Positions 40,139 to 43,100 of a stretch of DNA of 64,000 bases are shown here, one piece after another (the first letter of the stretch is position 1; every line of letters starts with the position of its first letter). A program made the position numbers. This DNA is from Escherichia coli (GTDB taxonomy: Bacteria; Pseudomonadota; Gammaproteobacteria; Enterobacterales; Enterobacteriaceae), in assembly GCF_044324785.1 (NCBI RefSeq), contig NZ_CP172127.1. One strand, 5' to 3'.

Positions 40139-43100
40139 TAACCGGATTGCACCACCAGATGAGCACGCCGCCAGTGCCGGTGGCCTTGCCGTTGGCATAC
40201 TGGGGGCACTGAAAGCCGCAGGTGGACTGTGGTTTGGCTGGAGTGGCGAAACAGGAAATGAGGATCAGCCACTAAAAAAGGTGAAAAAGGGTAACATTAC
40301 GTGGGCCTCTTTTAACCTCAGCGAACAGGACCTTGACGAATACTACAACCAATTCTCCAATGCCGTTCTCTGGCCTGCTTTTCATTATCGCCTCGATCTG
40401 GTGCAATTTCAGCGTCCTGCCTGGGACGGCTATCTACGCGTAAATGCGTTGCTGGCAGATAAATTACTGCCGCTGTTGCAAGACGATGACATTATCTGGA
40501 TCCACGATTATCACCTGTTGCCCTTTGCGCATGAATTACGCAAACGTGGGGTGAATAATCGCATTGGTTTCTTTTTGCATATTCCTTTCCCGACACCGGA
40601 AATCTTCAACGCGCTGCCGACATATGACACCTTGCTTGAACAGCTTTGTGATTATGATTTGCTGGGTTTCCAGACAGAAAACGATCGTCTGGCGTTCCTG
40701 GATTGCCTTTCTAACCTGACCCGCGTCACGACGCGTAGCGCAAAAAGCCATACGGCGTGGGGCAAAGCGTTTCGAACGGAAGTTTACCCGATCGGCATTG
40801 AGCCGAAAGAAATAGCGAAACAGGCTGCCGGACCACTGCCGCCAAAACTGGCGCAACTCAAAGCGGAACTGAAAAACGTACAAAATATCTTTTCTGTCGA
40901 ACGACTGGATTATTCCAAAGGTTTGCCGGAGCGTTTTCTCGCCTATGAAGCGTTACTGGAAAAATATCCGCAACATCACGGTAAAATTCGTTATACCCAG
41001 ATCGCGCCAACGTCGCGTGGTGATGTGCAAGCCTATCAGGATATTCGTCATCAGCTCGAAAATGAAGCCGGACGAATTAATGGTAAATATGGGCAATTAG
41101 GCTGGACGCCGCTTTATTATTTGAATCAGCATTTTGACCGTAAATTACTGATGAAAATATTCCGCTACTCTGACGTGGGCTTAGTGACGCCACTGCGTGA
41201 CGGGATGAACCTGGTAGCAAAAGAGTATGTTGCCGCTCAGGACCCAGCCAACCCGGGCGTTCTTGTTCTTTCGCAATTTGCGGGAGCGGCAAACGAGTTA
41301 ACGTCGGCGTTAATTGTTAACCCCTATGATCGTGACGAAGTTGCAGCTGCGCTGGATCGTGCATTGACTATGTCGCTGGCGGAACGTATTTCCCGTCATG
41401 CAGAAATGCTGGACGTTATCGTGAAAAACGATATTAACCACTGGCAGGAGTGCTTCATTAGCGACCTAAAGCAGATAGTTCCGCGAAGCGCGGAAAGCCA
41501 GCAGCGCGATAAAGTTGCTACCTTTCCTAAGCTTGCGTAAGTGCGGTTAATCTCCCGTAAGTGGAACTAACAGCACATCGACCTCACTTGAGGCAATCAC
41601 TCTTTTCGCCGAGCAGGATGCTCGCGAAAAGAAACTGTGATTGTGATTACCGCAAATCACCAAATCGAAATGATATTTGCGACAAACTTCCAGAATATGT
41701 TCGCTTAACTCACCGTAGGCAATAAACGTCTTGTCAACGGGATACCCCGCATCCTGAATTAACTTATCAAGAAAGCTTTGCGTTTCTTCCTGCATCACGC
41801 TGCGTAAATCTTCAAGCATCGGCGCAGCTAATTGATTGTACATTTCCGGGTCGGAAGCGAGAGTAATTAAACTGATGTGTCCCTTTACTGGCCTGGCGAT
41901 AGATACCGCTTTTGCCAGCAGTTGCTGACTTTCCGGTGTAACCGCAACGGCGACAAGAATATTGCTATAGCTCATAACCTGTTCCTTATTCTGTGAACTT
42001 CAGGTGACATTAAAGCTTTACTCCTAATGGAGAAACGACGCAATCCCAACTCAGTCAAACAGGTAAATATTAGTCTGATTATTAGTAAAGACAATTAATC
42101 AATCACTCTCGGTGATCATATGATTTCAACTGTAATTATAAGAAAATAATGTACTGATTCTCCATATTAAACAAGTGGTTAATATATGTAAAACATTTTA
42201 TTAACATTAAGTTGATTGTTGCCTTTCTTTGTATTTAATTAGTTTGTTGTGCGGTAAGTGTCTGTTTAAAAATAGCTTATCTGGTATTGCATTAAAGCAA
42301 TTATTTATAGCAGATGATTATTTACGGTGAGTTATTTTAACTGTGCGCAACATCCCATTTCGATTATTCCTGTTTCATTTTTGCTTGCTAGAGTCGCGAA
42401 AAACTTTTTAACAGATTGAAATACACCCAAAACAAAAGTATGACTTATACATTTATGTTAAGTAATTGAGCGTTTTGTGTGATCTGTATCACACATTATT
42501 GAAAATCGCAGCCCCCCTCCGTTGTATGTGAGTGTAGTGACGAGTAAAGTTGCGTCGATTTAGGAAAAATCTTAGATAAGTGTAAAGAACCCCTTCTATT
42601 TGTAAGGACTTATTGAATCCCAAAAAGGGGCTCTGCCTGTTGCAGCTTATCGCAACTATTCTAATGCTAATTATTTTTTACCGGGGCTTCCCGGCGACAT
42701 CACGGGGTGCGGTGAGACCGCATAAAAATAAAGTTGGTTATTCTGGGTGGGAATAATGCATACCTCCGAGTTGCTGAAACACATTTATGACATCAACTTG
42801 TCATATTTACTACTTGCACAGCGTCTGATTGTTCAGGACAAAGCGTCCGCAATGTTTCGTCTCGGCATAAATGAAGAAATGGCGACAACGTTAGCGGCAC
42901 TGACTCTTCCGCAAATGGTTAAGCTGGCAGAAACCAATCAACTGGTTTGTCACTTTCGTTTTGACAGCCACCAGACGATTACTCAGTTGACGCAAGATTC
43001 CCGCGTTGACGATCTCCAGCAAATTCATACCGGCATCATGCTCTCAACACGCTTGCTGAATGATGTTAATCAGCCTGAAGAAGCGCTGCGCAAGAAAAGG

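Follow-up and report, generated by a model that had tools for sequence, protein, structure and literature searches.

The uspC-flhD intergenic region in a natural Escherichia coli lineage is free of insertion sequences

The 780-bp interval between uspC and flhD in the window, the 64-kb stretch of Escherichia coli DNA analyzed here, contains no insertion sequence (IS). Very probably, it represents the divergent control region of uspC and flhDC in its native, uninterrupted form, in a natural, non-K-12 E. coli lineage. An IS-free uspC-flhDC region is already known biology. The interval and the genes flanking it are as follows.

41547..41975, minus strand: uspC (yecG), encoding universal stress protein C (142 aa); an ORF transcribed away from flhDC.
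41976..42755, no strand assigned: the uspC-flhD intergenic regulatory region, 780 bp, 35% G+C, IS-free.
42756..43106, plus strand: flhD, encoding a 116-aa protein identical to K-12 FlhD.
43109..43687, plus strand: flhC, encoding a 192-aa protein with E111D as its sole substitution relative to K-12.

The UspC protein is the same as that of E. coli N3 and differs from K-12 UspC by three substitutions. The annotated ATG of flhD is at 42756, an alternative longer ORF begins at GTG 42747, and the same uspC and flhD coordinates are annotated in the complete genome of N3. The G+C content is 35% in the gap versus 50% in the whole window, and it is 25 to 32% at positions 42076 to 42475. All fli, flh, mot, and che genes that lie wholly inside the window are full length and have no stops. 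These are fliN to fliE, fliD, fliS, fliT, fliC, fliA, and fliZ, together with motAB, cheAW, tar, tap, cheRBYZ, and flhBAE. The genes for the trans-acting regulators lrhA, ompR, rcsB, hns, and csrA are located outside the window.

According to the preliminary description, which was made from the sequence alone, the gap harbors no transposase ORF, no terminal inverted repeats, and no target-site duplication, and our analysis bears this out. Of the ORFs that lie within the gap or extend into it, the longest comprise 40, 44, and 47 aa, and none of these had a Pfam match at an E value of ≤1. In place of terminal inverted repeats there are only six imperfect inverted pairs of 10 to 17 nt, and no tandem repeats were found in the gap. 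Using IS1H (from MG1655), IS1A (EC291), IS5 (W3110), and IS903B (ECONIH5) as queries in local blastn, we obtained nothing beyond chance matches of 8 to 12 nt within the gap (E ≥ 0.18), and the 64-kb window as a whole did not match any of the four. An IS-derived fragment revealed by a similarity search, named beforehand as evidence that would speak against an IS-free gap, was therefore not encountered by blastn. An Rfam scan of positions 41400 to 43900 at an E value of ≤1 gave no match. A pattern scan for sigma-70 promoters and terminators was uninformative: it returned three promoter-like sites, the number expected from shuffled sequence (3.0), all three were on the strand of uspC, and the weak flhD promoter was not picked up.

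A sensitive blastn search with the gap as the query covered 72,556 plasmid records, among which any common enterobacterial IS would light up. Thirteen records matched; except for one short K-12-derived fragment, the matches represent the homologous chromosomal locus in chromosome-sized or chromosome-derived records. The median number of places at which the region occurs in a complete E. coli genome is one (maximum, two; 5,426 genomes), and the region is therefore single-copy DNA. Since the absence of an IS is a negative observation, no question of chance arises. The inverted repeats were considered as candidate ends of an element and were rejected, as the DNA is single copy.

One match from the plasmid collection deserves mention in its own right. 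The PLSDB record HM037272.1, labeled as a plasmid of Bacillus thuringiensis CT-43, contains at positions 68388 to 68877 a 490-bp stretch of K-12-like uspC-flhD gap, the end of which coincides exactly with the point of IS1 insertion in MG1655. The E. coli stretch is probably cloning-host contamination or the product of a chimeric assembly.

In principle, the six short repeats could mark the remnant of a degenerate IS, or a miniature inverted-repeat element with arms at, for instance, 42194 to 42210 and 42452 to 42468. The repeats do exist, but their arms are only 76 to 91% complementary, lie in AT-rich DNA of 25 to 32% G+C, and have no flanking direct repeats. Furthermore, the sequence is single copy across E. 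coli genomes, occurs on plasmids only as the homologous locus, and has no similarity to IS1, IS5, or IS903. We regard such a remnant as extremely improbable and retain the view of a native, uninterrupted interval.

For comparison with published insertion sites, the flhD transcription start was placed by homology, 198 nt 5′ of the K-12 ATG, which corresponds to window position 42557. With this start, the TTAA used in W3110 is located at −99 to −96, exactly matching the published position, which PMC5100188 credits to Barker et al. as well as to Wang and Wood. The coordinate frame is cross-checked by the published IS5 sites, since all four land on YTAR tetranucleotides of the window (at −99, −169, −318, and −475), each of which is unoccupied. 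In the literature, three of these sites are given as a TTAG at approximately −319 to −311, a site 166 bp upstream, and −476 (PMC5100188, PMC1174868), to which −318, −169, and −475 in the window correspond. Two adjacent targets are central here.

42450..42457, at −107 to −100 relative to the flhD transcription start: CATTTATG, the 8-bp IS1H target in MG1655; single and unoccupied.
42458..42461, at −99 to −96: TTAA, an IS5 hot spot; single and unoccupied in the window.

It had been stated in the preliminary description that MG1655 and other motile K-12 stocks carry an IS1 or IS5 at this locus that raises flhDC expression. Indeed, NC_000913.3 annotates IS1H between uspC and flhD of MG1655, IS1 is present in RP437, and IS5 is present in W3110, MC4100, MC1061, DH10B, and HMS174. 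Alignment to MG1655 and W3110 revealed an IS in both, so that the reference does not lack the element at this site. The IS1H copy of MG1655 (insA5/insB5) is 768 bp long and is accompanied by an 8-bp duplication of CATTTATG. The TTAA is occupied by IS5 in W3110 and NEB10-beta, where the element was mapped, and by ISKpn26 in strain 2021CK-01361; MC4100 and DH10B are among the K-12 stocks that match the W3110 arrangement. In a mouse-gut derivative of K-12, IS5 is located farther upstream, at a position corresponding to approximately 42207. The gap measures 780 bp in the window, 1,555 bp in MG1655, where it is longer because of the inserted IS1H, and 1,978 bp in W3110. Published work agrees that these elements raise flhDC expression (PMC1174868, PMC5100188, PMC9478672), and insertion of an IS up to approximately 476 bp upstream has been linked to higher flhDC expression and motility (PMC5493358, PMC5100188, PMC1174868, PMC9478672).

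The claim that the flhDC promoter is uninterrupted was substantiated by colinearity. When IS1H and one target copy are removed, the K-12 gap is 779 bp long and aligns end to end with that of the window, with approximately 31 differences. Likewise, alignments with the IS-deleted K-12 gap and with seven natural isolates (777 to 780 bp) contain substitutions and indels of 1 to 2 nt only. The window shares with IS-free natural E. coli the flanking genes, the gap length of 777 to 780 bp, the colinear structure, the −35 hexamer, and the unoccupied IS targets. It also shares homologous flanks and 94.5 to 96.9% intergenic identity with MG1655, but it has no IS1 and a single CATTTATG, whereas MG1655 has the 768-bp IS1 and the 8-bp duplication. 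Similarly, the homologous flanks and the TTAA tetranucleotide are shared with W3110, MC4100, and DH10B, but the window does not have their IS5 of approximately 1.2 kb at this tetranucleotide. Neither hallmark of an IS-activated flhDC allele, an IS with a transposase gene and terminal inverted repeats before the flhD start or a duplicated target of 8 to 9 bp (IS1) or of 4 bp with the sequence YTAR (IS5), was found in the window. IS-free K-12 stocks exist as well, for example, the poorly motile BW25113 and MG1655 isolate 'B' (PMC1174868); the window diverges from K-12 by approximately 4% at the nucleotide level and carries a minority haplotype.

The frequency of the IS-free state was determined with a core query spanning −477 to +3, which was kept at 480 bp because any IS would then split the match. 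A locus was counted as uninterrupted if it gave a one-piece match of at least 80%. This was the case in 5,268 of the 5,419 complete E. coli genomes (approximately 97%); 164 records matched the query at two places. With the MG1655 arrangement as the query, IS1 was detected in the gap of 77 genomes, and with the W3110 arrangement, an IS5-family element was detected in 63 genomes. Among the matches listed, the IS-carrying genomes are overwhelmingly laboratory derivatives of K-12. The IS-free state is the norm and does not distinguish this strain: our finding is correct but ordinary, because approximately 97% of the complete genomes share it.

A former IS might have been lost by precise excision, in which case the interval would be a revertant and not ancestral. 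Laboratory stocks often acquire an IS at this locus, but we found no evidence that supports an excision, and neither a duplicated target nor a scar is present at any known site. The colinear structure shared by approximately 97% of genomes and by the seven aligned natural isolates also argues against it, as does a published screen of 5,000 colonies that yielded no revertants (PMC1174868). A truly precise excision would leave no trace in the sequence, and it is not the economical reading. We therefore consider a revertant hardly credible and an ancestrally uninterrupted control region by far the better account.

Among the matches listed, a few natural isolates are interrupted, too. Strain 2021CK-01361, from a human rectal swab, carries its ISKpn26 in the TTAA hot spot and retains flhDC. 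In the pig isolate CP53, IS1A is inserted at flhD codon 16, and everything from there up to argS, and with it the flhDC-to-flhE region, is lost. EC291 lacks the promoter and the 5′ part of flhD after an IS1-associated deletion; in ECONIH5, an IS903B-associated deletion has taken away part of otsA, uspC, and most of the gap.

In addition to the IS targets, the following elements of flhDC control were located in the window.

42478..42493, plus strand: CRP site TGTGATCTGTATCACA, centered at −71.5, TGTGA-N6-TCACA; assigned by sequence match.
42522..42550, plus strand: candidate flhDC class-1 sigma-70 promoter with −35 TTGTAT, a 17-nt spacer, and −10 TAAAGT; assigned by pattern match.
42557..42755, plus strand: flhDC 5′ leader, 199 nt.
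42557..42777, minus strand: putative AsflhD-homologous position; MG1655 annotation 1978176-1978395 transferred by alignment.

The identity of this sequence as the CRP site is well established (Soutourina et al. 1999, as cited by PMC5493358), and both of its half-sites agree perfectly with the consensus. Its position at −71.5 and a leader of approximately 198 nt are features that the window has in common with IS-free natural E. coli and IS-free K-12. The half-site TCACA is present in the window and in all seven natural strains; among the nine sequences, K-12 alone has TCACG. Therefore, the K-12 reference may understate the CRP affinity at flhDC. The −10 hexamer is TAAAGT in the window versus TACAGT in K-12, corresponding to a C-to-A change at −10 (position 42547), and the segment from −9 to +31 is identical between the two. 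The window has what characterizes a native flhDC region: a colinear gap in the range of 777 to 780 bp, a promoter, a CRP site and a leader, and intact flhD and flhC.

The A at −10 is part of a minority haplotype. Together with a variant leader segment from +32 to +82 (42589 to 42639), it is common to the window, N3, EC21, and APEC O78:H4, and it sets them apart from K-12 and the remaining four natural strains. Nine columns vary in the leader segment, one of them through a 1-nt insertion at 42618, and the haplotype also carries a T in the CRP spacer. Genomes with at least 99% identity number 251 to 305 of approximately 5,420, depending on whether the core or a 1,560-bp segment is used as the query, and most of the others are 95 to 99% identical. 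Folding of nine leader alleles with ViennaRNA, a set with too few haplotypes to support covariation analysis, predicted a stem between +30 to +38 and +68 to +77 that is kept in eight of the nine. In these models, changes in one arm of the predicted stem look coupled to those in the other.

Judged from the sequence, any of the promoter, CRP-site, and leader variants could alter expression without an IS. The interval might accordingly be IS-free and yet have flhDC expression shifted away from the level of IS-free K-12 by the point variants of its lineage; IS absence would then not predict the level of motility, because such variants can raise or lower expression. In line with this, the approximately 31 differences from K-12 are concentrated in the promoter and the leader, the identity to K-12 is 94.5% in the flhD-proximal part versus 96.9% in the distal part, and the half-site TCACG sets K-12 apart from the other eight sequences. 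Moreover, point mutations in this region have been reported to alter motility, for example, a C-to-A change at −63 (PMC5100188). However, the change at −10 brings the hexamer no closer to the consensus (four of six positions in both), and the predicted architecture of the leader fold is the same in most of the alleles compared, with eight of the nine agreeing in the 5′ half. We consider such a shift possible but unlikely; it would refine the main explanation, that of a native uninterrupted region, and would not contradict it. Even more doubtful is the stronger proposal that the minority haplotype represents a functionally distinct natural regulatory allele of flhDC. If it were true, the coupled leader changes might retune control by CsrA or small RNAs, or mRNA stability, without an IS.

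The relationship of the window to N3 differs along its length. The 1,560-bp uspC-flhD segment is 100% identical to N3, and the identical tract around it extends from 41007 to 43368 (2,362 bp). Over the 64 kb, the window differs from N3 by approximately 1 to 2.5%, and the fliC alleles differ. For positions 30001 to 55000 (25 kb), the best complete RefSeq E. coli genomes were N3 (98.9%) and then 042 (98.8%), and none was close. Since an N3-identical tract sits in an otherwise non-close window, these comparisons suggest that the uspC-flhD locus is mosaic (recombinant) and belongs to a lineage poorly represented among complete genomes.

Some other loci in the window were compared with N3 as well. 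Between fliE and yedL, at approximately 9584 to 10707, there is a homologue of an N3 leucine-rich-repeat gene with 64 to 69% identity and in-frame stops. Probably, the gene is either a pseudogene or a strongly diverged allele, and no other kilobase of the window differs more from N3 (178 differences). The adjacent yedL (GNAT acetyltransferase; approximately 10838 to 11315) appears frameshifted, as annotated in N3. The fliC gene (18294 to 19784) is intact and encodes a flagellin of another type than that of N3 (55% amino acid identity), and its allele is present at ≥99% identity in approximately 97 complete genomes.

In K-12, the flhDC leader is subject to control by CsrA and small RNAs. From the K-12 literature, we infer which regulators would bind in the window and, likewise, how expression and motility would respond. 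The AT-rich upstream part of approximately 580 bp, a repressor target in K-12, would serve the same role here, and repressors named in the literature are H-NS, LrhA, OmpR, Fur, IHF, MatA, and YjjQ (PMC5493358, PMC5100188, PMC1174868, PMC9478672). The CRP activator site at −71.5, the weak sigma-70 promoter, and the 199-nt leader would make up the rest, with the leader region containing the RcsAB repression site known in K-12. Because no IS parts the promoter from the upstream repressive DNA, flhDC would be expected to be under normal multi-input control, without the partial derepression of MG1655 (IS1) or W3110 (IS5). Native, environmentally controlled regulation of flhDC in this strain is a reasonable inference, since the promoter, the CRP site, the leader, flhDC, and the flagellar and chemotaxis genes are intact.

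These results underline that the K-12 reference is the exception at the uspC-flhD locus. Therefore, a natural isolate aligned with MG1655 will seem to have a 776-bp 'deletion' upstream of flhD, when in fact it simply lacks the IS1H gained by laboratory K-12. Since the flhDC control region and the structural genes are all kept, motility of this strain would be expected to be conditional and not laboratory derepressed.
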